A stretch of DNA of 32,000 bases from Psychrobacter cryohalolentis K5 (GTDB taxonomy: Bacteria > Pseudomonadota > Gammaproteobacteria > Pseudomonadales > Moraxellaceae): assembly GCF_000013905.1 (NCBI RefSeq), contig NC_007969.1, positions 2,190,001 to 2,222,000 of the forward strand, given 5' to 3'. The first letter of the stretch is position 1; every line of letters begins with the position of its first letter. Positions 2,781 through 29,518 of the stretch are shown one piece after another. Position numbers and translations under genes: made by a program. The notes below the pieces were generated by a model. That model made no database searches and was not told where the DNA came from. It saw nothing but the letters and a program-made list of their open reading frames with translations.

Positions 2781-3060
2781 CGTTTTTTCCGATTTAAGAT
2801 GGTTTGTAGTGATACATCAATCTCAGATAAAACATAAGATATTTTCGTCTTTAGAATGCATGTGAAATATATGCATCATACACTCACTCTCTTATTATTG
2901 TACCTGTCCAAAAAATTAATAGTTAATATAGGGCATACCCCAGCGGAACCAGCTATTTCACCCTTCATACCTATTAATAGACCACTTAAAATAGACTGCT
3001 ATCACAATGCTGAACTAGCTCGTCTATTGCGTTACGCATCATAGAACCACATGTTCTTTA

Positions 3061-4017
3061 TTACAAAGCCACCTCGTAACTCATACTACGCCCCGAAGCC
3101 TCGGATTTTTTCAGCATCCCCTTCTCTATCAGATCATTAATATCACGCAGTGCTGTATCTATAGAACACTTGGTCATCACTGACCATTTTTTAGTGGCCA
3201 GTTTGCCATAAAAGTCTGTGAGTAAATTATTTTGAGCAGCAATGAGTGCTTGTTCTAGTGTTTGTAGAAACCAGCACAGCCAATCAGTGATATCAGTATC
3301 GTCTTTTTGTGTTCGTTCCAATATTTTATAGTAGTCATTGCGCTGTTTAAGAATCTGCGCTGACATACTATAAAATCGTTGGGCGCTATCATCGCTTTGT
3401 GCCAGTGCTCTCTCAGTAATGGCACGGGTCAATCGCCCATTGCCATCATCAAAGGGATGGATCGTCACAAACCATAAATGAGCGATACCTGCTTTAATCA
3501 CCAGATCTATGTTCTCTTGCTCATTTGGTAAGGTGTTAAACCAGGATAAATTGTCTAGCTCATCTGATAGCCTATCGGCACTAGACGCAACGAAATGAGT
3601 CTGCTCGTGACCATAACCACCAGAAACTACCTGCATAGGTCCTTGACTGTCATCACGCATACTGCCCGCTTTGATACGATAAAGTCCACTATATCCATCT
3701 GGGAATAACGCCCTATGCCATCCTAATAAATCGTCCAACAATAATGGTTGTTGATAATGATAGGTCGCATTTAGCATCATTTCCACAACTGCATCTATCT
3801 CACGAGTAGCAGTTAGCATACCCTTATTATCTATTCCTAAGTGGCGTGCGACAGAAGACCTTACTTGCTCATTATTTAATGACTCACCCTCAATCTCTGA
3901 CGTTTTAACGATTTCTAAAGTCACGGCATCTAACTGTGCCTTAACATTAAGTTCAAACCCTAGCGTTAGCAACTTTCCAAGCAAACGGCCTTGTAATATC
4001 CGCACACGACTGACCAA
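3061..4017 (-). CDS. Fic-family protein (AMPylase-type), class II with an N-terminal inhibitory helix; the true start is probably upstream of 4017
   Basis: Fic motif HPFDDGNGRLTRAI. Inhibitory motif (S/T)xxxE(G/N) present as TSEIEG. C-terminal winged-helix-like tail. The track start is a TTG, and the frame stays open upstream to 4095 with a DUF4172-like sequence (HEHSDWNEWQWSDKKLLPL). Confidence 0.9.
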   Translation of the reverse strand: MVSRVRILQGRLLGKLLTLGFELNVKAQLDAVTLEIVKTSEIEGESLNNEQVRSSVARHLGIDNKGMLTATREIDAVVEMMLNATYHYQQPLLLDDLLGWHRALFPDGYSGLYRIKAGSMRDDSQGPMQVVSGGYGHEQTHFVASSADRLSDELDNLSWFNTLPNEQENIDLVIKAGIAHLWFVTIHPFDDGNGRLTRAITERALAQSDDSAQRFYSMSAQILKQRNDYYKILERTQKDDTDITDWLCWFLQTLEQALIAAQNNLLTDFYGKLATKKWSVMTKCSIDTALRDINDLIEKGMLKKSEASGRSMSYEVAL

Positions 4018-4365
4018 TGGCAGCAGTTTTTTATCTGACCATTGCCACTCATTCCAGTCTGAATGTTCGTGAATATAGCTAATATACGCTATATTTTTTT
4101 AATGATACGCAGAGAAAATAAGGGGGATACAACGCATAAAAAACGTTTGTTATAAGAAAGTAGCTTAAATAATAATGTGGAATAAGCGTTCTTTTATGAT
4201 AAAGGCATTATTTTTGGCTTAATCGACACTACAGTCGACGTAAAAAGACTATAAAATTATAGTGCCCAAATACGTGTTAAACTTTATCTTATACTCGTTG
4301 ACCTTGGTTTTTTTAATTATAGAATAGCTATAAGCTAATAAAATCAATACATATAAGATAACGTT

Positions 4366-4512
4366 ATATAGCTAATCCACTTTTAAAAGGGTACAGAACT
4401 ACTGGGGTTAATTATTCGCAGCCTCTGTCTGCGTAGGCACAGCAAGCAAGAAAAATTGACTCCAGTAGTACCTTATAACATTTGTATTTCTTTTATTTAG
4501 GACCGACTATAT
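4366..4512 (+). mobile_element. MITE-like palindromic element, copy A (147 bp)
   Basis: Terminal inverted repeats ATATAGCTAATCC / GGACCGACTATAT. Internal 14-bp stem at 4399-4412 / 4455-4468. 112 of 147 positions are identical to copy B in a gap-free hand alignment. Confidence 0.7.
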
Positions 4513-4609: not shown

Positions 4610-4640
4610 GCCCCAGTCTAACGACTGGGGCCTTTTTTTT
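4610..4640 (+). terminator. Strong rho-independent terminator with no annotated gene upstream
   Basis: GCCCCAGTC-TAAC-GACTGGGGC (9-bp GC-rich stem, tetraloop), then C plus T8. Confidence 0.8.
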
Positions 4641-5016: not shown

Positions 5017-5883
5017 ATGTTAACTTTTCATTCAAAATCATCATTGCCTATATTCAAAACGGCAATGGCTTCTACTTTATTAATCGCTGCTGTACAACTG
5101 ATGACAGGCTGTGACTTACAGCCTTCATCTACAAATAACGATGACACTACACAAACGAATAATATAGACAAAGACATGACCAAGAATGATGAGATGCCTG
5201 TCAATCCAGCACCTACAGATTCTGGCGCTATGGATAAAATACAAACTAACAACGCAGCAGATATAGCTGATGAGCAAATCGTCAGCCCGTCAGGGTATCA
5301 AAATTTAAGCTTCGGTCAGGCTATTACCCCTGAGTTGCTAAGTAGCCTAGGAATAACCAAAGCCAAGAGCGATAACGAACAATGCTATTACGTCAGTAAT
5401 CCAGCACTGAGTTATGTCGATAAAGAGTACGGTGAACGCGCTTCTGTTTTATATCAAATCATAGATGGTAAAGTTGCTCTGATCAGTATTCGGGATCCAA
5501 TCATCCCGTTTTATAAAGACATCAATATTGGCAATTCCGCTACAGACGTTATGAAAGCACATAATGACGAGCTCACTTACGAGGTCGATAAATATGCGGT
5601 TGATGGTGATTACTATAGCCTGATTGCTAACATCAATTTCAAAATGATAAAAGAAAGCCCACTTGGAGAATCATTAAGAGACGAAAATATTGAGCTTAAT
5701 AATAAAGAGGATAAGTTACCCCTACAAATTGAATATCATATCAAGGGCGGTCAAAAGCTGAGTGATTCTACGATTAAGGCGACTGAGTGGACAGCAGACA
5801 ATAAAAGCCTATTAAAAGGTGAGGTAGGAAGCATCGATATTGGTATACCAGAAGCGATTTATTTGGTGGAAGGCTGCTCTTAA
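5017..5883 (+). CDS. Lipoprotein of unknown function
   Basis: 288 aa. Signal peptide with lipobox LMTG-C. Low-complexity Thr/Asn/Asp linker, then a globular domain. Confidence 0.7.
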   Translation: MLTFHSKSSLPIFKTAMASTLLIAAVQLMTGCDLQPSSTNNDDTTQTNNIDKDMTKNDEMPVNPAPTDSGAMDKIQTNNAADIADEQIVSPSGYQNLSFGQAITPELLSSLGITKAKSDNEQCYYVSNPALSYVDKEYGERASVLYQIIDGKVALISIRDPIIPFYKDINIGNSATDVMKAHNDELTYEVDKYAVDGDYYSLIANINFKMIKESPLGESLRDENIELNNKEDKLPLQIEYHIKGGQKLSDSTIKATEWTADNKSLLKGEVGSIDIGIPEAIYLVEGCS

Positions 5884-5894
5884 AAGTTGAACAT

Positions 5895-5921
5895 AATAAC
5901 CCAGCATCTAGCTGGGTTATT
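5895..5921. terminator. Bidirectional hairpin between convergent genes
   Basis: AATAACCCAGC-ATCTA-GCTGGGTTATT, 11-bp perfect stem, lying between the lipoprotein gene and ampC. Confidence 0.6.
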
Positions 5922-5966
5922 AGTGAAAGGCCATTTTTATAAGGTTGCTTTGTGACTCATGCTCAA

Positions 5967-7157
5967 TCAATGAGTTATCGCACTCTCTAAAATCGTATAC
6001 GCTGCTTTGACCCTATCTGCATTTGGATAGTTTTTATTTGCCAGAATGACAATGCCTGATTTTTCGGCAGGAATATAAGCGATATAGCCACCAAACCCAT
6101 TAGTAGCACCTGTCTTATTTACCCAGACGTTATTTAAAACAGCCGTTGGATGATTGTCTGTTTTGATGGCTTGAGGCTTTAGTACCACGTCCATCGAGTT
6201 GCCTTCAAGCAAGGTATCTAGCTGAGTAGGATAAGGGTACATCTCCCATCCTAACCCTTGGGTAAAAGTGCTCGCCTGATAGTAACCCTTTCTATTATTG
6301 TCTAACGCTTGCTGAATATTTTTATCTAGCGGCACAAGACCCATATTCGCTGCCATAAAATGCGTCATATCTGTGATGGTGGATTTAATGCCATAGGTTT
6401 CAGCGTCTAACATGCCAGGATTGACTCGGATAGCATCGCCAGCAGCGTTGTAACCAAACGCATAATCTGCCATCTTGTCACTAGGCACATTGATAAAAGT
6501 ATTGGGCATATTGAGTGATGGCAGTATTTTTTCTTCCATCAATTGTGTGTAATCAGTGTCCATGCTCAATGCCGATATATAACCAAACAGACCGATACTG
6601 GCGTTGGAATACAGACGCTTTGAGTTGACAGGAAAGACTGGCTGCCAAGATTTATAATAACGTAGCAACTCTTTATTGTTTTTGACGTCATCAGGGACTT
6701 GTAGCGGTAGACCACCAGCTGAATAGGTGGCTAGGTTTATAAGCTTGGTGTTACCAATGGCGCTGTTTTTTAGGTAGGGAATATATTTATCAGCAGTATC
6801 TTCTAATGTAAGTGTGCCATTTAATTCTGAATAACTGGCTAAGGTAGCCGCAAACGTCTTACTGATTGAGCCTAGCTCAAAAATAGTGTTTTCTGAGACA
6901 GGTATTTTGGCTTTCTTATCAGCCAAACCATAATGATAAAAATGTGATTTGCCATCGATGATGACGCCAAAAGCCATTCCTGAAATATTATGCTCATTCA
7001 TTAGTAATTTGGCTTGTTGATCAACAGCGCTCTTTAGATGGTCATTGTTATCCGCTGCTTGTACGGTTCCAGATAGTAATGATGCTGTCACTAAAGCGGT
7101 AAATCCCACTTGATTTAAAAAGGTTTGAAAGGGTTGTTTCATTATAGGGTTTCTCAT
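5967..7157 (-). CDS. ampC: Class C (AmpC-type) beta-lactamase
   Basis: 396 aa with a signal peptide. Catalytic motifs SISK (SxxK), YSN (YxN) and KTG are in the canonical order and spacing. The start could be M1 or M6. Confidence 0.9.
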   Translation of the reverse strand: MRNPIMKQPFQTFLNQVGFTALVTASLLSGTVQAADNNDHLKSAVDQQAKLLMNEHNISGMAFGVIIDGKSHFYHYGLADKKAKIPVSENTIFELGSISKTFAATLASYSELNGTLTLEDTADKYIPYLKNSAIGNTKLINLATYSAGGLPLQVPDDVKNNKELLRYYKSWQPVFPVNSKRLYSNASIGLFGYISALSMDTDYTQLMEEKILPSLNMPNTFINVPSDKMADYAFGYNAAGDAIRVNPGMLDAETYGIKSTITDMTHFMAANMGLVPLDKNIQQALDNNRKGYYQASTFTQGLGWEMYPYPTQLDTLLEGNSMDVVLKPQAIKTDNHPTAVLNNVWVNKTGATNGFGGYIAYIPAEKSGIVILANKNYPNADRVKAAYTILESAITH

Positions 7158-7323
7158 TTATTCTGATAGATGTACTGATAATTTAGTGAGCATGCAAATA
7201 GCGCTTTGCTTTCAGTTCGGGTATGCCGTTTTGCATTATCTCAGAATGCTGAATCTCCGACAATCTTAGCGATTTAGTATCATAGAATGGATCTTTTAGG
7301 GTATACCTCAAAGGGATCATTGA

Positions 7324-7353
7324 AAGCTGGCTTCTTCTATGTAAAGCCAGCTT
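7324..7353 (-). terminator. Hairpin downstream of tatA
   Basis: AAGCTGGCT / AGCCAGCTT, 9-bp stem with a 12-nt loop. The U-tract on the minus strand is poor. Confidence 0.4.
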
Positions 7354-7387
7354 CCATAATATTTCTCATTGGAACAAGAGGCGCGCT

Positions 7388-7672
7388 TCATACTTTGTGT
7401 TGATCATCAGCGGTAATAGGGCTGATTTGCATGTCATCAACCTGAGTACCTACCTGCGTATTTAAATCATTACTTGCAGCGGGCGTACTATTTTCATGGC
7501 TAAGCATACGATTCTTGCGAGCATGCTCGGCTTCTTCATCTTTGACCGCTTCTTTAAAACCCTTTACCGCACCGCCTAAATCCTTGCCAGCATTTTTAAG
7601 CTTAGCAGTGCCAAATACGACCACTACTACAACTAATAAAATCAGCCAATGTGTAATAGAAAAACTGCCCAT
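7388..7672 (-). CDS. tatA: Twin-arginine translocase subunit TatA/TatE, stand-alone
   Basis: Start re-set to the internal Met with an [56 protein letters not shown] matches the TatA TM helix, FG hinge and amphipathic helix. No tatB or tatC follows. Confidence 0.85.
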
Positions 7673-7751
7673 AACGGTATCCTTATATCTTAGGCCTTGA
7701 TAAGACCAGTATGTGTATGTGTGCTTTAAAACCCTCTTCACCGTACCAAAA

Positions 7752-10196
7752 TTACAGCTTCAAACGGCGCAACCGCAGCGCGTTACCAATAACAGATACT
7801 GACGAGAGACTCATAGCCGCCGCCGCTATCATTGGACTGAGTAAAATCCCGAAGAACGGATACAGCACACCTGCCGCAATTGGTACACCAAGGGCGTTGT
7901 ATATAAATGCAAAGAACAGGTTTTGTCTGATATTGCGCATCGTAGAATGGCTCAGTTTATGGGCTCTTACAATCCCCATCAGGTCACCCTTCACTAGCGT
8001 AATGCCAGCACTCTCCATGGCCACATCTGTTCCTGTGCCCATAGCGATGCCGACATCTGCTTGGGCAAGAGCGGGAGCATCGTTAATACCGTCACCCGCC
8101 ATAGCCACAACCTTGCCACTACTTTGCAACTCTTTGATGATACGGTTTTTGTCTTCTGGAGAGACGTCAGCATGTACCTCATCAATCTTTAACTTACTAG
8201 CAACCGCTCTAGCCGTTATCTCATTATCACCTGTCAGCATGACTACCCGCAGTCCAGCTTTGTGTAATAGCGATATTGCCTCACTGGTACTCGGCTTGAT
8301 CGGATCAGCGACCGATATGAGACCAGCAGCTTGCCCATCTACTGCGACAAACATAACAGTTTCACCGTCCTTCCTGCGTTTGTCGGCGCGTTCTAAAAGC
8401 GTACTATCAAAACTATTGAGGCGTTGCATGAATTTTGAGTTGCCTACGGCGACTTGCTTGCCATTGACCAGCGCCTGCGCGCCTTCACCGGTAGTTGAAC
8501 TAAAATCGCTTGCCTTAACCATATCGAGAGATTTTGCCTTTGCTGCATTGACAATAGCTTCTGCCAGAGGATGTTCGCTGGCAGTCTCTACCGCTGCGAC
8601 AAGTATAAGCATCTCATCCTCGTCTAAGCCGCCAAGCGCTTCGATAGCGGTAAGCTCTGGTTTGCCTGCTGTCAGCGTTCCGGTTTTATCGACAACGATG
8701 GTGTCGACTTTTTCCATACTTTCTAACGCTTCAGCATTCTTGATAAGCACGCCATTTTGTGCTCCTTTACCAGTACCCACCATAATCGACATCGGTGTGG
8801 CGAGCCCTAACGCACAAGGGCAGGCAATGATTAATACAGCGATAGCATTGACCAGCGCAAAAGCCATTGCAGGCGTAGGCCCAAATATCGCCCAGACAAT
8901 AAAGGTAATGACAGAGCAAATAAGTACGATGGGCACGAACCATCCAGCTACCTTATCAACCAGTTTCTGTATTGGCGCGCGACTGCGCTGGGCTTCAGCA
9001 ACCATCTTGACGATCTTGGACAATACGGTATCATCACCAACGTTAACTGCTTTGATCAGTAGTGTCCCAGTACCGTTGACTGTGCCGCCGGTGACCGTAT
9101 CCCCTTGTGCCTTTAACACTGGGATGGGTTCACCAGTCACCATCGATTCATCAATGCTACTACTACCATCAAGTACCGTGCCGTCTACAGGAAGCTTTTC
9201 TCCTGGCTTGACTCGCAATCTGTCGCCGCTGATCACTTCGTCAAGTGATACTTCGGTCTCGACATCGTTCTCATCCACACGTCTTGCCGTTGGTGGTGCC
9301 AGCTCTAGTAACGCACGGATTGCTCCTGAGGTCTGACTTCTGGCTTTGAGCTCTAACACTTGACCCAATAGCACTAAGGTCACAATGACCGCTGCCGCTT
9401 CGTAGTACACCCCTACTTGGCCAGTGGCGTCCCTGAAGCTGTCTGGAAAAACATCCGGAAGGAAGGTTGCTACCAGACTGAAACCAAAGGCTGCACCTAC
9501 ACCAACTGCAATCAAAGTGAACATGTTCAGGTTTCGGCTTTTTATTGATTGCCAGCCACGGACGAAGAATGGTGCGCCTCCCCATAACACCACTGGTGTT
9601 GCAAGCGCTAGCTGAATCCACTGAGCGATCTGTCCAGAGATATCACCTTGTCCAAGGTTGTCTAAGCTTAGACCTACCATGTCACTCATAGCATACAGAA
9701 ATAGCGGTATGGTAAGCACCGTACAAATCCAGAAACGGCGTGTCATATCGTCGAGCTCTGAGGTGTCCTCCTCACCAATAGTAGCCATCTCTGGTTCAAG
9801 CGTCATGCCGCATATCGGACAGCCGCTATTCTTCACATCTCTGACTTCTGAATGCATCGGACAAATATAGACTGTACCGCTATAATCAGCTGGCACTTTG
9901 TCGTATTTGCCGCCTTTGACAGATTTTACCTTAGTACGGTCAGTATCTTTGCCATGACAATGTGAATGACTGTCTTCATCTGTAACCTCGTCTTCAGGTT
10001 TGAGGAACATACCACATATTGGGCAGTCGCTTTTTTCAACATCTCTCACTTCGGGATGCATCGGACAGGTATAAACGGCGCCATTATAATCAGCTGGCAC
10101 TTGGTTATACTCTTTGAAGGTAGTATGGGCTTGGTTAGTATTGTTTGACTCTAAACCACTATGGCCATTCTTTTTATCGCTATTATTAGGATTCAT
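7752..10196 (-). CDS. copA: Cu(I)-translocating P1B-1-type ATPase
   Basis: 814 aa with TGE, CPC ([13 protein letters not shown]), DKTGTLT, SEHPLA and GDGINDAP. Cu(I) selectivity residues YN(x4)P (FIYNALGVP) and MSLSS. Two N-terminal CPMHxEV...CPICGM heads. GAAGGAG RBS. Confidence 0.95.
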
Positions 10197-15908: not shown

Positions 15909-16523
15909 TTATTGTTTAGCTGCTTCAACTTTTATATTTAAAGTCAGATTTTTAGTCATACCGAACAAGACATATTTTTTGATATTCCACTGAGTACGGT
16001 CAATAGTGGCGGTAAAATTGCCTCCGCAGATATTCTTCTTAGCTAGAGCGGTCAGATAGCAACTAAATTTGGTCGCCAATAAGCTAATAGGATGGGTCTG
16101 ACCGTTTAAGGTTAGCTTGCCATCCACTTGTGTGACCTTTGGGTTTTCTTCGTCAGAGGTGAAATGCCATTTGGTAGATTCAAAATGAGCCAATGGAAAC
16201 TGTTCCATATTAAAAAAATCAGAGCCCATCAGTTTGAGAGTGAAGCTTTTATTGCCTGTGTTTAAGGATTTTATGGGGATAATGAGAGAGATGTCGCCAG
16301 TTTTTGCGCTCGGATCATACTGGAGTATTCCCGTCACATTATAGAAGCCGCCAGTGGTGGCAGAGGTTTTGAGGTGGTCAATAGCGAAACGTACGTTAGA
16401 GGTGTCAGGCTCAATTTTATAGGTGGCGGCAAAGCTACTAACCGTACAACCTACCAGCAATAATAACGTCCCTAATGGCTTGTAGTAATGCAATAGTACT
16501 TTGTCAAATACAAGCTGGCTCAT
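15909..16523 (-). CDS. YceI-family (polyisoprenoid-binding) periplasmic protein
   Basis: 204 aa with a signal peptide. YceI-like core YKIEPDTSNVRFAIDHLKTSATTGGF...SLNTGN...DFFN. AAGGAA RBS. Confidence 0.85.
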   Translation of the reverse strand: MSQLVFDKVLLHYYKPLGTLLLLVGCTVSSFAATYKIEPDTSNVRFAIDHLKTSATTGGFYNVTGILQYDPSAKTGDISLIIPIKSLNTGNKSFTLKLMGSDFFNMEQFPLAHFESTKWHFTSDEENPKVTQVDGKLTLNGQTHPISLLATKFSCYLTALAKKNICGGNFTATIDRTQWNIKKYVLFGMTKNLTLNIKVEAAKQ

Positions 16524-20467: not shown

Positions 20468-21820
20468 ATGCAGGTTAAATCTCAAAGAACTTGGATCAAA
20501 AACCCCCTCGACTGTTTAGACCCCGCTTATGCTGGCGGTATCGTTATTCAAAATGATCTTATTGTCGAATTAATAAGGGCTGGTGAACAACCCTTACAAG
20601 CGGTTGATGAGGTAGTTGATGCCCATGAACACGTTCTTGTACCCGGCTTAATCAATAGCCACCATCACTTTTATCAGACATTGACCCGTGCTTTTCCTGC
20701 CGCGTTAAACAAAAATCTCTTCCCTTGGCTGCAAAGTCTTTATCCCGTTTGGGCCAGACTAACCCCTGAAATGATAGCAACATCTACCCAAATCGCGCTT
20801 TGCGAATTACTACTCTCTGGTTGTACTACCGCCAGTGATCATCATTATTTATTTCCTGATGGCTTAGAGCATGCTATTGATATTCAAGTAGAGCAGGCAA
20901 CCAAACTGGGTATCCGCGTGCACCTTACCCGTGGCTCAATGAGCTTAGGTGAAGATCAGGGCGGCCTGCCTCCTCGAACCACCATTCAAACCGATCACGA
21001 AATCCTAGATGATAGCCAGCGATTGATTAAAGCCTATCACCAATATGAAGATGGCGCGATGACCCGCATAGCACTAGCCCCCTGCTCCCCATTTTCTGTT
21101 AGTGAAGAACTGATGCGAGCAACAGCTGATTTAGCCCAAGATCTTGATGTTAGATTACATACCCATTTGGCCGAAACCCATGATGAAACAGACTTTTGTA
21201 TAAAAATGTTTGGCGTGCGTCCTGTTGATTACCTTGAGCGCGTTGTTTGGTTAAATAATCGTACGTGGCTCGCGCACGGTATTCACTTTAATGATGAAGA
21301 AATAGCACGATTAGGTAAAGCGCATGTGGGTATTGCCCACTGCCCTTCGTCAAATATGATATTAGCATCAGGACAATGCCCTACTATTGCCCTGCAAAAG
21401 GCGGGTTGCCCTGTCGGTCTTGGTGTTGATGGCTCTGCATCAAATGACGGCTCGAACATGATTGGTGAAGTCCGCCAAGCGTTATTGTTACAACGTCTGC
21501 GTTATGGTGCTAAAGAAATAACCCACCAAAAGGCGTTTGAGTGGGCAACTAAAGGCTCAGCAGGGTGTTTAGGTCGTGATGATATTGGGGAGATAGCGAT
21601 AGGAAAACAAGCTGATATCGCGCTATTTAAACTTGATGAAATACGCTTCGCGGGCGCAGGCTCTCCTGTTGCATCACTATTACTTTGTGGTGCAACCAAA
21701 GCCGATAAGGTAATGGTTGCCGGTAAATGGCGTGTATTAGAGGGTCAAATAGTCGGTGTCGATATGAATCAATTGATGGCGAAACAAATTACGCTAGCAG
21801 CGAATTTAGCCCGTGCTTAA
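20468..21820 (+). CDS. Amidohydrolase, 8-oxoguanine deaminase-like
   Basis: 450 aa. TWIKNPL...PGLINSHHHFYQTLTRA...LFPWLQSLYPVWARLTPE...LSGCTTASDHHYLFP matches the 8-oxoguanine deaminase / atrazine-hydrolase-like subgroup as I remember it. GGAG RBS. Confidence 0.8.
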   Translation: MQVKSQRTWIKNPLDCLDPAYAGGIVIQNDLIVELIRAGEQPLQAVDEVVDAHEHVLVPGLINSHHHFYQTLTRAFPAALNKNLFPWLQSLYPVWARLTPEMIATSTQIALCELLLSGCTTASDHHYLFPDGLEHAIDIQVEQATKLGIRVHLTRGSMSLGEDQGGLPPRTTIQTDHEILDDSQRLIKAYHQYEDGAMTRIALAPCSPFSVSEELMRATADLAQDLDVRLHTHLAETHDETDFCIKMFGVRPVDYLERVVWLNNRTWLAHGIHFNDEEIARLGKAHVGIAHCPSSNMILASGQCPTIALQKAGCPVGLGVDGSASNDGSNMIGEVRQALLLQRLRYGAKEITHQKAFEWATKGSAGCLGRDDIGEIAIGKQADIALFKLDEIRFAGAGSPVASLLLCGATKADKVMVAGKWRVLEGQIVGVDMNQLMAKQITLAANLARA

Positions 21821-21901: not shown

Positions 21902-21948
21902 ATAGTAATATTAGATTCACTAAAATACAGAGAATCTGATATTACTAT
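21902..21948. repeat. 17-bp inverted repeat hairpin abutting MITE copy B
   Basis: ATAGTAATATTAGATTC - 13 nt - GAATCTGATATTACTAT, 16 of 17 positions pair. Its right arm runs into the left end of copy B. Confidence 0.5.
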
Positions 21949-22091
21949 AGTCAATCCACTATAAATCAAACAAAATGCTACTGGGATAAGTTTTGCGCCG
22001 CCTCTGTCTACGCAGGCACAGTAAGCAAGAAAAATTTATCCCAGTAGCGCGTTATAATATTTGTACTTATTTTATTTAGGACTGACTATAG
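21945..22091 (+). mobile_element. MITE-like palindromic element, copy B (147 bp)
   Basis: Terminal inverted repeats CTATAGTCAATCC / GGACTGACTATAG (12 of 13 complementary). Internal stem at 21978-21989 / 22036-22047. Confidence 0.7.
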
Positions 22092-22379: not shown

Positions 22380-23447
22380 ATGAGACATTTTTATTTAGAC
22401 TTCATCTTCACAGCTATCGCATTGATGGTAGCTGCATGGTGGGGATATTCACATGGCGGTATGGGCGGTTTGATAACCACCCTTTCTATTACTGCTATTT
22501 TGGCCGTCATGGAGATTTCATTATCCTTTGATAATGCGGTGGTCAACGCCTCAGTCCTTAAAGGCTGGGACGAGTTTTGGAAAAAGATATTTTTAACCGT
22601 TGGTATTTTAATTGCTGTATTCGGTATGCGCTTGGTATTCCCAATTGTCATCGTTGCGGTTACCGCAGACCTTGGCATGATGCAAGTGATAGATTTGGCA
22701 TTGAACGATCCTAAAGAATACTCAGCAAGACTGATGGCGCATCATGCTGAAATCTCAGCCTTTGGTGGTATCTTCTTGTTACTCGTCTTCTTAAACTTTA
22801 TCTTTGATGATAAAGAAGTGCATTGGTTTAACTGGCTTGAGAGCCGCTTAGCAAAGCTTGGCAAAGTCGATGCCATGAGCGTCTTCGTTGCGCTTATTGT
22901 CCTGATGTTCGCTGTATCTTGGGCCAGTGCGGAGCAAGCTTCTGCCGTACTGATTGCGGGTGTTTGGGGTATCTTGGTCTATCTTGGTGTCCAAGTTATC
23001 TCTGGTATGCTCGAGGGTGACCTTGAAGAAGACTTAGAAAATGAAGAAAAGGGTTCAGGTGCCGCAGCGACCAGCGCGATTATGAAGGGCGGTATTATCG
23101 GTTTCTTATACTTAGAAGTTCTTGATGCTTCATTCAGTTTCGATGGTGTGATTGGCGCCTTTGCAATCACCAATGACGTTATTGTAATTATGTTAGGTCT
23201 TGCGATTGGTGCGATGTTTGTGCGTTCGATGACTATTTTCTTGGTAGACAAAGGCACACTTGATGAGTTCATTTATCTAGAACATGGTGCGCATTATGCC
23301 ATTGGTGCTTTGGCAATTATTATGCTGCTATCAGTGAAATTCCATGTACCAGAGATTATTACGGGTTTGATTGGTATTGCCTTTATTGGTTGGGCATTGC
23401 TTGCTTCACTTAAACATCGCAAGCAACAAGCGAAGGCGATTACTTAG
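22380..23447 (+). CDS. TerC/DUF475-like integral membrane protein
   Basis: 355 aa polytopic protein. Paired motifs EISLSFDNAVVNA and EVLDASFSFDGVIGA are separated by an acidic loop (EGDLEEDLENEEKG). Confidence 0.8.
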   Translation: MRHFYLDFIFTAIALMVAAWWGYSHGGMGGLITTLSITAILAVMEISLSFDNAVVNASVLKGWDEFWKKIFLTVGILIAVFGMRLVFPIVIVAVTADLGMMQVIDLALNDPKEYSARLMAHHAEISAFGGIFLLLVFLNFIFDDKEVHWFNWLESRLAKLGKVDAMSVFVALIVLMFAVSWASAEQASAVLIAGVWGILVYLGVQVISGMLEGDLEEDLENEEKGSGAAATSAIMKGGIIGFLYLEVLDASFSFDGVIGAFAITNDVIVIMLGLAIGAMFVRSMTIFLVDKGTLDEFIYLEHGAHYAIGALAIIMLLSVKFHVPEIITGLIGIAFIGWALLASLKHRKQQAKAIT

Positions 23448-24519: not shown

Positions 24520-24867
24520 TCAACTGGTAATTTTACGAACCAATAAAGTAAGTTTGTCTTTACCATTATCAACTGTAGCTTCCTTATCATAGGCGACGGT
24601 CGTTTCATGTTCCGCAACATCATCACCAACTTTAAGAGCCGTAACGACTTTAGCAGTATGCTCATTATAGGGCTTTACTGTCAGGTTATACTGAAACTCA
24701 GTGTCAACAGCGATCGATGCCATCTCTTCAGCATTTACAAGCATCACAGGTGAAGCAATTAACTCACCATCTTTAAATACAGAGGTAGAAACTTTATAAG
24801 CATCAGCTGCAAAGCATGATCCTGACGCCAACACGGTAGCTACTAACAAACCTAATTTTACTTGCAT
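24520..24867 (-). CDS. Small secreted protein of unknown function
   Basis: Start re-set to MQVKLGLLVATVLASGSCFA-AD (signal peptide, AGGAAATTAAG RBS). 115 aa. The longer track ORF would run into MITE copy C. Confidence 0.65.
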   Translation of the reverse strand: MQVKLGLLVATVLASGSCFAADAYKVSTSVFKDGELIASPVMLVNAEEMASIAVDTEFQYNLTVKPYNEHTAKVVTALKVGDDVAEHETTVAYDKEATVDNGKDKLTLLVRKITS

Positions 24868-24893
24868 CTTAATTTCCTTATTTATAATCAATG

Positions 24894-25039
24894 TATAGTC
24901 AATTCCAAATAAAACAGATACGTTATGTTCCAACGCAGTACTGGTATAAATTTTTCTGGCGTGCTGTGACTACGCTGACAGAGGCTGCGTAAAATTCATC
25001 CCAGTCCTACTGTATCGCTTTAATACTGAACTCACTATA
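24894..25039 (-). mobile_element. MITE-like palindromic element, copy C (146 bp, inverted relative to A and B, more diverged)
   Basis: Ends TATAGTCAATTCC ... TGAACTCACTATA. It aligns over its full length with the reverse complement of copy B, including CAGAGGC, the ACTGG/CCAGT stem arms and AAATAAAA. Confidence 0.6.
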
Positions 25040-25265: not shown

Positions 25266-25721
25266 TTAATACGGCGTATCATTTGGCAGCAGCTCCGCTA
25301 TTCGTTTTTGCCATTCATCTTTAGAAAGAAGCGTATTATTATTTGATTTCATTTCTTCTAATACCCTATAACGAGTAGTAAGCTGATTAATGACATTGGT
25401 AAGAGCCGCTTGTTCGCTTTTCGCTTGAGCAAGCTTTTCAGAAACGGCAAGCATTCGTTTATCGATACTGAAATTGCCATCGTAATAATCATTAAGACCA
25501 TTCTTAATTTCATTAAGACTAAAACCGACAGCTTTTATGTTTTTAATTATTTCGATACGCTCAATACATTCTGGATGAAACTCTGTATATAATCGTGACC
25601 CTGCCTGACGCTTACGAGATCTCAGCAATCCCAATTCATCGTAATGGCGAATAGTATCTTTAGTCGTATTGGCTTGTTTTGCCAATGCCCCTATCAATAA
25701 AAAGGCTGGATCAGATTTCAT
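25266..25721 (-). CDS. MerR-family transcriptional regulator
   Basis: N-terminal HTH LIGALAKQANTTKDTIRHYDELGLL plus a coiled-coil dimerisation helix. No Cys/His metal-binding loop is obvious. Confidence 0.85.
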   Translation of the reverse strand: MKSDPAFLLIGALAKQANTTKDTIRHYDELGLLRSRKRQAGSRLYTEFHPECIERIEIIKNIKAVGFSLNEIKNGLNDYYDGNFSIDKRMLAVSEKLAQAKSEQAALTNVINQLTTRYRVLEEMKSNNNTLLSKDEWQKRIAELLPNDTPY

Positions 25722-25737
25722 GTAATAATCTCGAAAA

Positions 25738-25769
25738 GGTACGTTTGTCTTATTTCAGACAAGTATACC
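25738..25769 (-). terminator. Hairpin plus TTTT after the AT-rich orphan gene, 16 nt upstream of the merR ATG
   Basis: GGTACGTTTGTCT-TATTTC-AGACAAGTATACC (10 of 13 pair, inner 6 perfect), followed on the minus strand by TTTTCGAG. It could alternatively be a dyad operator. Confidence 0.45.
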
Positions 25770-25871
25770 TCAATGAAACCAGTGTAAACCGACTTCTTCT
25801 ATCTAGAGTCATTTGCCATAACATTTCTCATGGAAAGAAGTGCGGTTCACGAGCCATGTCATGGTATTCCT

Positions 25872-29269: not shown

Positions 29270-29518
29270 GATTTTGTCTCTATTAAATAAAATAATTTTT
29301 ACAGCAGTTAAATTAAATTCGTTTTTATATATTAAAGCTCTTGAAAATTAGTAGATATATTTAAAAAAATAAACATATCCATAACTGCTCAAGAGCCTTG
29401 ATAAACATAGATAAACTTTTAAAAAACGATGTTAGTTTTAAACGCTACACAAAATGAGAAGTGCTTATCATTTTTTTGTATTAATTACTGTTGCATCAAT
29501 AACTATTGTATTAATCAC

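Follow-up and report, generated by a model that had tools for sequence, protein, structure and literature searches.

A TA-duplicating, hairpin-forming MITE family in intergenic DNA of Psychrobacter

Three copies of one repeat in the window

The 32,000-nucleotide stretch of Psychrobacter cryohalolentis K5 analyzed here (contig NC_007969.1, positions 2,190,001 to 2,222,000; below, the window; G+C content 40.7%) carries three copies of one short repeat, designated A, B, and C, at a density of about one per 10 kb (Table 1). All three lie between genes, as the initial annotation had reported, and their flanks are unrelated to one another. We consider them to be copies of a non-autonomous DNA transposon, belonging to a 138-146 bp family of MITEs (miniature inverted-repeat transposable elements) that is abundant throughout Psychrobacter, and we give this reading a probability of about 85%.

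An independent repeat finder returned the same three places as direct reading and alignment, with copies A and B beginning and ending one base inside the coordinates first assigned to them. Pairwise identity was 116/145 for A-B, of the same order as the 112/147 counted earlier in a gap-free alignment, and 109/146 for both A-C and B-C (75-80%). The 22-nt core GCCTCTGTCTGCGTAGGCACAG matched the window three times with up to three mismatches, compared with no match in 100 shuffles. Every copy starts with TATAG and ends with CTATA, and can be read as TA-TAG...CTA-TA. When the first and last 14 nt were compared as terminal inverted repeats, they agreed at 8/14 positions in A, 11/14 in B, and 10/14 in C; the 12 of 13 previously given for copy B was thus roughly right, whereas the repeats of copy A are weaker. 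Folding as single-stranded DNA produced long hairpins, with z-scores against shuffles of -1.8 for A, -4.8 for B, and -2.7 for C. Because the hairpin of copy A taken alone is barely above chance, the covariation found across the family (see below) is the stronger evidence for the fold.

Table 1. Coordinates of the repeat copies, their parts, and the neighbouring genes in the window
Feature	Position	Strand	Remarks
Copy A	4367-4511	+	145 bp, 145-bp subfamily; TA on each side included; nhmmer 124.6 bits
Left TA of copy A	4367-4368		presumed half of a duplicated target, judging by a family member's empty site
Right TA of copy A	4510-4511		second half of this presumed duplication
Conserved centre of copy A	4418-4457	+	GCAGCCTCTGTCTGCGTAGGCACAGCAAGCAAGAAAAATT; asymmetric, at the hairpin tip
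Copy B	21946-22090	+	145 bp, 145-bp subfamily; nhmmer 120.4 bits
Conserved centre of copy B	21997-22036	+	
Copy C	24894-25039	-	146 bp, 146-bp subfamily; nhmmer 122.4 bits
Conserved centre of copy C	24949-24988	-	
Fic-family gene	3061-4017	-	copy A about 350 bp upstream of the gene
Lipoprotein gene	5017-5883	+	other neighbour of copy A
Amidohydrolase gene	20468-21820	+	copy B starts 125 bp past the stop
DUF475/TerC gene	22380-23447	+	copy B 290 bp upstream
115-aa gene	24520-24867	-	signal-peptide-like N-terminus; ATG at 24867, 27 bp beyond the end of copy C
MerR-family gene	25266-25721	-	copy C 226 bp downstream

Distribution in Psychrobacter and insertion into TA

The core motif GCCTCTGTCNNCGNAGNCACAG was scanned over one genome per bacterial species and occurred at no fewer than 120 loci. 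Among the 120 listed, 118 came from Psychrobacter or closely allied metagenome-assembled genomes (MAGs), from 44 assemblies; the remaining two, in a Clostridium MAG and a Jiangellaceae MAG, were taken to be chance matches, judging from their taxonomy. A profile search (nhmmer) of the retrieved loci, about 1 Mb, yielded 181 non-overlapping copies, 142 of them full length. The situation that the initial annotation had named as speaking against a mobile element, with only three copies, always syntenic and lacking empty sites, is therefore false.

Copy lengths peaked at 138 bp and at 145-146 bp, and clustering separated three main subfamilies of 145 bp (copies A and B), 146 bp (copy C), and 138 bp, which have the terminal TATAGTC/GACTATA and the centre in common but differ in the arms. 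Column conservation over 125 copies was 0.3-0.4 outside the element, rose to 0.9-1.0 from TATAG on, and dropped right after CTATA; the terminal 7 nt were conserved at 0.9-1.0. The similarity is thus bounded by TATAG and CTATA, and the MITE-like element with TATAG-starting inverted repeats first proposed from three copies proved to be multi-copy across Psychrobacter. The longest stop-free stretch among 137 copies was 52 codons. Intergenic DNA held 167 of 174 copies, and the other seven overlapped a long open reading frame (ORF).

An orthologous pair of filled and empty sites was found in the 138-bp subfamily. In P. glacincola CCUG 34874 (locus L051), a 138-bp copy lies between the convergent dusB and DUF1622 genes; in six contigs (L132-L137), in which DusB is 97% identical, 32 bp separate the same two genes. 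The filled sequence reads ...CATGAATAGC TA TAGTCAGAG...ATTTTAACTA TA TTTACAATGAAAC... and the empty one ...CATGAATAGC TA TTTACAATGAAAC..., or in short form AATAGC TA TAGTCAGAG...TTAACTA TA TTTACAATG and AATAGC TA TTTACAATG. Around the insert, AATAGC-TA-[TAGTC...AACTA]-TA-TTTACA is matched by AATAGC-TA-TTTACA, with otherwise identical flanks. This comparison shows that the element duplicates TA on insertion, as had been suspected from the outermost TA on each side of the window copies. Because the empty site has one TA between C and T, the duplication is TA and not TATA, and the inserted unit is TAG...CTA. By analogy with this site, copy A would also be flanked by a duplicated TA. Among copies with intact ends, the base preceding the element was A or C in 61/83 and the base following it was T or G in 61/83, which suggests a weakly palindromic target, (A/C)TA(T/G).

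Copies at different loci of one genome were 95-98% identical in P. glacincola, FME6, B38, and MFD10591, and the flanks inspected for the near-identical P. glacincola copies were unrelated right up to TATAG and CTATA. Near-identical copies at unrelated loci are the signature of recent spread. Presence and absence also differed between species, in both directions, at L016/L044, L040/L093, and L005/L102, with junctions blurred by divergence. The nqrF-SDR-apbE region holds two copies in B38, a degenerate, different copy in the opposite orientation in one relative, and a terminal remnant only in another; these represent independent insertion states and decayed remnants. The element accordingly has the features by which MITEs in general are recognized: it is small and non-coding, has terminal inverted repeats where the similarity ends, duplicates TA, and occurs in many copies at unrelated loci. 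As a real MITE family that duplicates TA and occurs throughout the genus Psychrobacter, it belongs to a known sort of element.

As the element encodes nothing, its movement would have to be brought about in trans. The TAG...CTA unit enters a TA dinucleotide and duplicates it; in the mechanism that we propose, a transposase would recognize the short conserved ends (TAGTC.../...GACTA). The near-identical copies in several species imply that such a TA-specific transposase is currently active. Propagation probably requires the fold, or a factor that binds the centre; alternatively, the fold would be tolerated or useful in transcripts.

Several individual loci deserve mention. At 29270-29518 of the window, about 215 bp of unrelated AT-rich sequence stands where two other Psychrobacter species (L112, L029) carry a copy between ornithine cyclodeaminase-family and arginase-family genes. 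Two inverted 138-bp copies enclose about 1 kb at L047 (4732-5998), resembling a composite transposon; their outer ends match at 19/20 positions, and the longest ORF of the segment between them has 112 aa. Copy A is 95% identical to a P. glacincola copy (L049, 6250-6394) for which a flank search returned no homologous flanks. This likeness, set against the 80% between A and B, might stem from a source lineage that evolves slowly, or from horizontal transfer.

Plasmids and viral contigs were also searched. With copy A as the query at 1e-5, the plasmid collection gave no match; with the subfamily consensus sequences it gave a few copies or relics, on Psychrobacter plasmids and on two Acinetobacter plasmids. 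The latter are relics, at 3004-3058 of A. baumannii pPUMA0052_1 (L147) and at 16155-16238 of A. variabilis NZ_CP078030.1, and suggest that plasmids have passed between the two genera. Plasmid pA17P4 (L146, 3001-3097) carries a shortened form, about 97 bp long: both ends (TATAGTCGATAC...GCGGACTATA) are kept and the left arm is retained as far as GCAGCCTC, but the right arm and the remainder of the centre are missing; it overlaps an annotated hypothetical protein gene. The core motif was not found in viral contigs. A scan of the same contigs with a 21-nt end pattern returned five chance matches and one true, full-length copy (119 bits), at 7612-7757 of IMGVR_UViG_2920962495_000003 (L160), a contig classed as viral or proviral.

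Fold, gene context, and competing explanations

The body of the element is an imperfect hairpin with about 65 potential pairs. A consensus fold computed from copy A and a set of 76 copies, selected to share no more than about 88% identity, contained 20 pairs, and in 14 of these both sides had changed with pairing kept; column pair 45/118, for example, was CG in 28 copies, AU in 16, and GC in 8, and column pair 46/117 was UA in 37 and GC in 19. Relative to the subfamily consensus sequences, 146 double changes restored a Watson-Crick pair and 38 did not. The long imperfect hairpin of the initial annotation is thus borne out by family-wide covariation and by the z-scores of copies B and C, with copy A marginal when considered singly.

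The centre, about 40 nt at the hairpin tip, has the form GCAGCCTCTGTC-loop-(G)CACAGCAAGCAAGAAAAATT, in which CTGT pairs with ACAG around a variable loop (TGCGTAG, ACGCCTGC, GATA, and others). Since it is not palindromic, it gives the element a direction. The core motif served as the search key, so that its conservation in the first copy set is partly by construction; when elements were sought by termini and fold alone, however, 81/81 carried the centre or a close variant, and the unspecified positions of the motif and the adjacent CAAGCAAGAAAAATT were conserved at 0.9 or more. We rejected a sigma-54 or sigma-70 promoter in the core, where the spacing was wrong by inspection, and a pseudoknot, whose loops would have zero length. 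In a single case among the 142 full-length copies (L063, 5707-5842, 138-bp subfamily), the centre is inverted relative to the arms, as if the loop had been flipped by recombination between them.

Several results weigh against the transposon interpretation or limit its reach. One is that the clean empty site belongs to the 138-bp subfamily and not to the subfamilies of the window copies. Another comes from the one close relative retrieved with the same synteny, a strain with a 98% identical TerC, which keeps copies B and C at the same positions; copy C differs there at 1/146 positions and copy B at 7/147. The identity of 75-80% among the window copies indicates that they are old, and being old and conserved in this relative, they are probably immobile relics. 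In more distant relatives, gene order differs around the window copies. Contigs bearing the gene beside copy A stop short of copy A: short-read contigs end a few hundred bases from it, and inside copy B, as expected if the repeat breaks assemblies.

The partner enzyme is a further difficulty. Neither the element, as noted from the start, nor the 32-kb window contains a transposase gene, and a search of Psychrobacter loci, plasmids, and contigs totalling about 1.2 Mb yielded no cognate transposase or full-length parent element. Parents were sought as matching inverted TATAG...CTATA ends 600-3000 bp apart with an ORF between them; the end pairs recovered enclosed housekeeping genes or a HicAB pair, or were MITE pairs or relics, and were rejected. 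An all-against-all search of the same 1.2 Mb for repeated segments of 0.6-3.5 kb found none. Insertion sequences (ISs) beside plasmid copies also failed as parents. On pYP14c (L151, 3311-4308) and pPSYFG1 (L152, about 5670-6663), an IS5-family IS with ends GGCGTGTTGAACAT and a duplicated CTAG sits exactly at the left edge of a MITE with a shortened centre (GCAGCCTCTGTAATAACAGCATGCAAGG), and on pPUMA0052_1 an IS4-family IS splits the relic; both are insertions into the MITE. We put an IS630/Tc1-mariner-type partner at about even odds, the TA duplication being the sole basis for naming a transposase family. A precedent for such ends exists in IS630-family elements of only 884-888 bp, bounded by 'TA|TA' or 'TATA', that are described from Acinetobacter and Nitrosomonas communis; a homologue lies in a record (KY052857) since re-attributed to Moraxella osloensis (PMC9977792; PMC11544213). 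One of them is IS630-AB1 of Acinetobacter (CP044356, 173741-174626), 884 bp with 'TA|TA' ends (PMC9977792). The published IS630 ends read CTAAATAGC...

Two last points concern constraint. Orthologous copies were 97.5% identical (831/852), compared with 95.5% (1605/1680) for 120-150 bp of flank, in a small and partly non-independent sample; this hints at some constraint and is unlike purely selfish neutral decay. Nor is a universal asymmetric centre predicted for a purely selfish, neutrally decaying element. We read this as selection acting on the fold and on the centre, be it for transposition or for a role at the level of the host.

Both points, together with the compensatory stem changes, fit the alternative that stands up best, namely that an element of MITE origin has been domesticated and is now kept because its hairpin and asymmetric centre act in host transcripts or DNA. 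Roles of the kind reported for Correia and ERIC elements are conceivable, such as a signal for mRNA stability or processing or a site bound by proteins. This explanation is compatible with a MITE origin, and we regard it as possible, though unlikely. Strand-specific signals lend it some support. Folded as RNA, the core-forward strand averaged -40.8 kcal/mol and its complement -39.6 kcal/mol (Wilcoxon p = 0.04; 77 copies favoured the forward strand and 60 the other), and single-side stem transitions on the core-forward strand gave G:T 322 times and A:C 228 times, counts that are not phylogenetically independent. A hand tally of the alifold pair table gave 88 G:U and 34 A:C. The asymmetry is nevertheless modest, with both strands folding almost equally. 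Moreover, the G:T excess was present in copies co-oriented with genes (127 vs 79) as well as in opposed ones (65 vs 52), so that its origin lies more probably in the source copies than in local transcription.

Gene context gave a similarly mixed result. The median distance from the preceding stop codon was about 50 bp, and between tandem genes 56 copies were co-oriented and 37 opposed, as a transcript-level role would favour; another 30 copies lay between convergent genes and 17, the fewest, between divergent genes. Both orientations are nonetheless common and the bias is weak. Ordinary intrinsic terminators adjoin several copies, so that the element is not needed as a substitute, and none was called on the element itself; we accordingly rejected a terminator function. 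Around the window copies, scans with promoter and terminator consensus sequences returned nothing above shuffle level. An IHF-like site, WATCARNNNNTTR, was present on either strand in only 10/137 copies and was dismissed as a feature of the element. Against domestication also stand the decay of copies to remnants and the lack of an RNA-family match: Rfam gave 0 matches at gathering thresholds across the window, and in the region of copy A none with an E-value below 3.

We consider it very improbable that the copies are multi-copy small RNA genes, each transcribed independently with TATAGT as the -10 box and the T-rich run as the terminator. TATAGT does look like a -10 hexamer, beyond the outer stem comes a T-rich run (TTTTATTTAGG), and the interior is conserved. 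However, no conserved -35 element precedes it, conservation being at background immediately upstream of TATAG, and the end of the element mirrors its start, as inverted repeats do and a promoter-terminator pair does not. The TA duplication with its empty site, the occurrence of both orientations relative to genes, the absence of called terminator-like sites at copies, and the negative Rfam result argue in the same direction.

Slightly less credible still is a repetitive extragenic palindromic (REP) or REPIN-type element moved on single-stranded hairpins by a REP-associated tyrosine transposase (RAYT), an IS200-like enzyme. The long hairpin body, the mild single-strand asymmetry, and the CTAC/GTAG tetranucleotides in the stem of the 145-bp subfamily (GCTACTGG...CCAGTAGC) would suit it, but the tetranucleotides are not kept in the other subfamilies. 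REPINs are not known to make a target duplication, whereas the Psychrobacter element has a duplicated TA and true terminal inverted repeats; its 138-146 bp and AT-rich stems contrast with the short, G+C-rich REP hairpins, and no RAYT gene was seen in the window. The poorest candidate, a regulatory or structural motif that was never mobile and is inherited vertically at fixed positions, accounts for copies B and C in the related strain and for several copies that the species have in common at orthologous sites, but is refuted by the empty site with identical flanks, and also conflicts with near-identical copies at unrelated loci, positions that differ between species, and copies on plasmids and a provirus contig.

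Around the window copies themselves, the proteins flanking copies A and B have identical sequences in assembly GCA_904845985.1, and their closest named homologues are all from Psychrobacter. Copy C is oriented like its flanking genes and may be part of the 5' leader of the 115-aa gene, or may supply part of its promoter. By inspection, TTGGAA within copy C lies 16 nt ahead of TATAAA in the flank, a pair not called in the promoter consensus scan; a promoter contribution from copy C is conceivable on these two motifs. An ORF at 24520-24933 enters copy C with a TTG start, and is probably an ORF-calling artefact, because the gene call in GCA_904845985.1 corresponds to the 115-aa product, with the ATG at 24867.

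A promoter-like TTGACC-16-TAGAAT (4298-4325) lies 40 bp ahead of copy A, and a strong terminator-like hairpin (4610-4640, plus strand; stem-loop 4610-4631 followed by a T-run) lies about 100 bp past it with no preceding ORF. The two might delimit a non-coding transcript of about 300 nt containing copy A; Rfam matches in the terminator region were weak and sub-threshold only.

Two further repeats were seen in the window. One is a 78-nt direct repeat with a hairpin (AAGCTGGCTT...AAGCCAGCTT), its copies 76% identical, each in front of a minus-strand gene: 7301-7378 lies just upstream of a class C beta-lactamase-like gene (5967-7157), and 25763-25840 just upstream of the MerR-family gene. It may represent a regulatory region common to both genes or a further repeat family. 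A 112-nt direct repeat (9790-9901 and 9994-10105, 76%) falls in the N-terminal region of a heavy-metal P-type ATPase gene (7752-10196, minus strand), and is consistent with two Pfam HMBD metal-binding stretches.

Relation to known elements

The element is apparently undescribed. Rfam holds no named family that matches it, and the literature on Psychrobacter MITEs and repeats, also searched with the element's sequence strings, contained no description, with ISfinder, Dfam, and subscription journals outside the search. This agrees with the initial annotation, which knew of no such element from Moraxellaceae. The element occurs frequently, and without annotation, between Psychrobacter genes and is open to being mistaken for a regulatory RNA. 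Copies directly ahead of genes, such as copy C, merit attention, since related elements elsewhere in bacteria alter expression. What sets the family apart is an invariant asymmetric centre, arms that co-vary, termini like those of Correia elements, and no transposase in sight even though some species have very young copies; such copies imply an active TA-specific transposase in a cold-adapted genus. The combination of very short conserved ends with the arms and centre just described makes it a good system for studying what a MITE needs besides its ends.

Among bacterial MITEs, RUP of Streptococcus pneumoniae and Nezha of cyanobacteria derive from IS630/Tc1-mariner elements; such MITEs duplicate TA, have short terminal inverted repeats, measure 100-150 bp, and are moved by a transposase in trans. 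Unlike the Psychrobacter element, for which the searches described above found none, they have an identified parent IS with matching ends. ERIC/IRU of Enterobacteriaceae is an imperfect palindrome of about 127 bp, intergenic and usually co-transcribed, with an orientation that affects mRNA stability; it differs from the Psychrobacter element in sequence and host clade. MITEAba12, found in Acinetobacter and Moraxella, is 113 bp long, has the inverted repeat GGCTTTGTTGCACAAA, duplicates 9 bp, and owes its movement to the IS5-family element ISAba12 (PMC6382973). It is likewise an AT-rich, non-coding, intergenic Moraxellaceae MITE, but we rejected identity with it, as ends, length, and duplication all differ and there is no common sequence.

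The closest likeness is to the Correia elements (CREE/NEMIS) of Neisseria, with which the initial annotation had already compared the window copies. They are of similar size (long form 153-157 bp, compared with 138-146 bp here), and both kinds of element are non-coding and intergenic, are present in many copies per genome, and have TATAGT...ACTATA ends, a whole-length imperfect palindrome, and a directional core. Correia elements also duplicate TA on insertion, and we know of no cognate transposase for them. The resemblance holds for TATAGT and the TA duplication and fails for the rest of the repeat and for the interior. The 26-28 nt Correia inverted repeat, TATAGTGGATTAA(C/A)A..., is not that of the Psychrobacter element, whose ends diverge from position 7: beyond the first 6 nt, Correia TATAGTGGATTAACAAAAA... 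and Psychrobacter TATAGTC(A/G)(A/G)T(C/T)CA... are unrelated. The interior is unrelated too, the host belongs to Moraxellaceae and not to Neisseria, and the IHF site of the Correia long-form core is not a consistent feature here. Correia elements begin with TATAGTGGATTAA... (PMC5039591), and have a directional core, end promoters that can arise, and the capacity to be bound by IHF and RNase III (PMC2649163); promoter creation and RNase III cleavage have been shown for them (PMC5039591, PMC2649163). The Psychrobacter element is thus Correia-like in its working and is not a member of the Correia family.

A more speculative idea, which we hold to be doubtful, is that the two represent separate branches of a single superfamily of hairpin MITEs, with TATAGT ends and TA duplication, that are served by a common, undiscovered type of transposase. 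The centre would then be a functional module predating the subfamily split, acting as a binding site for a host factor or the transposase, or as a single-strand fold. The match of the ends would offer one possible, as yet unproven, way of finding the missing Correia transposase and, if the superfamily is real, P. glacincola and FME6, with their very young copies, would be the place to find that enzyme.

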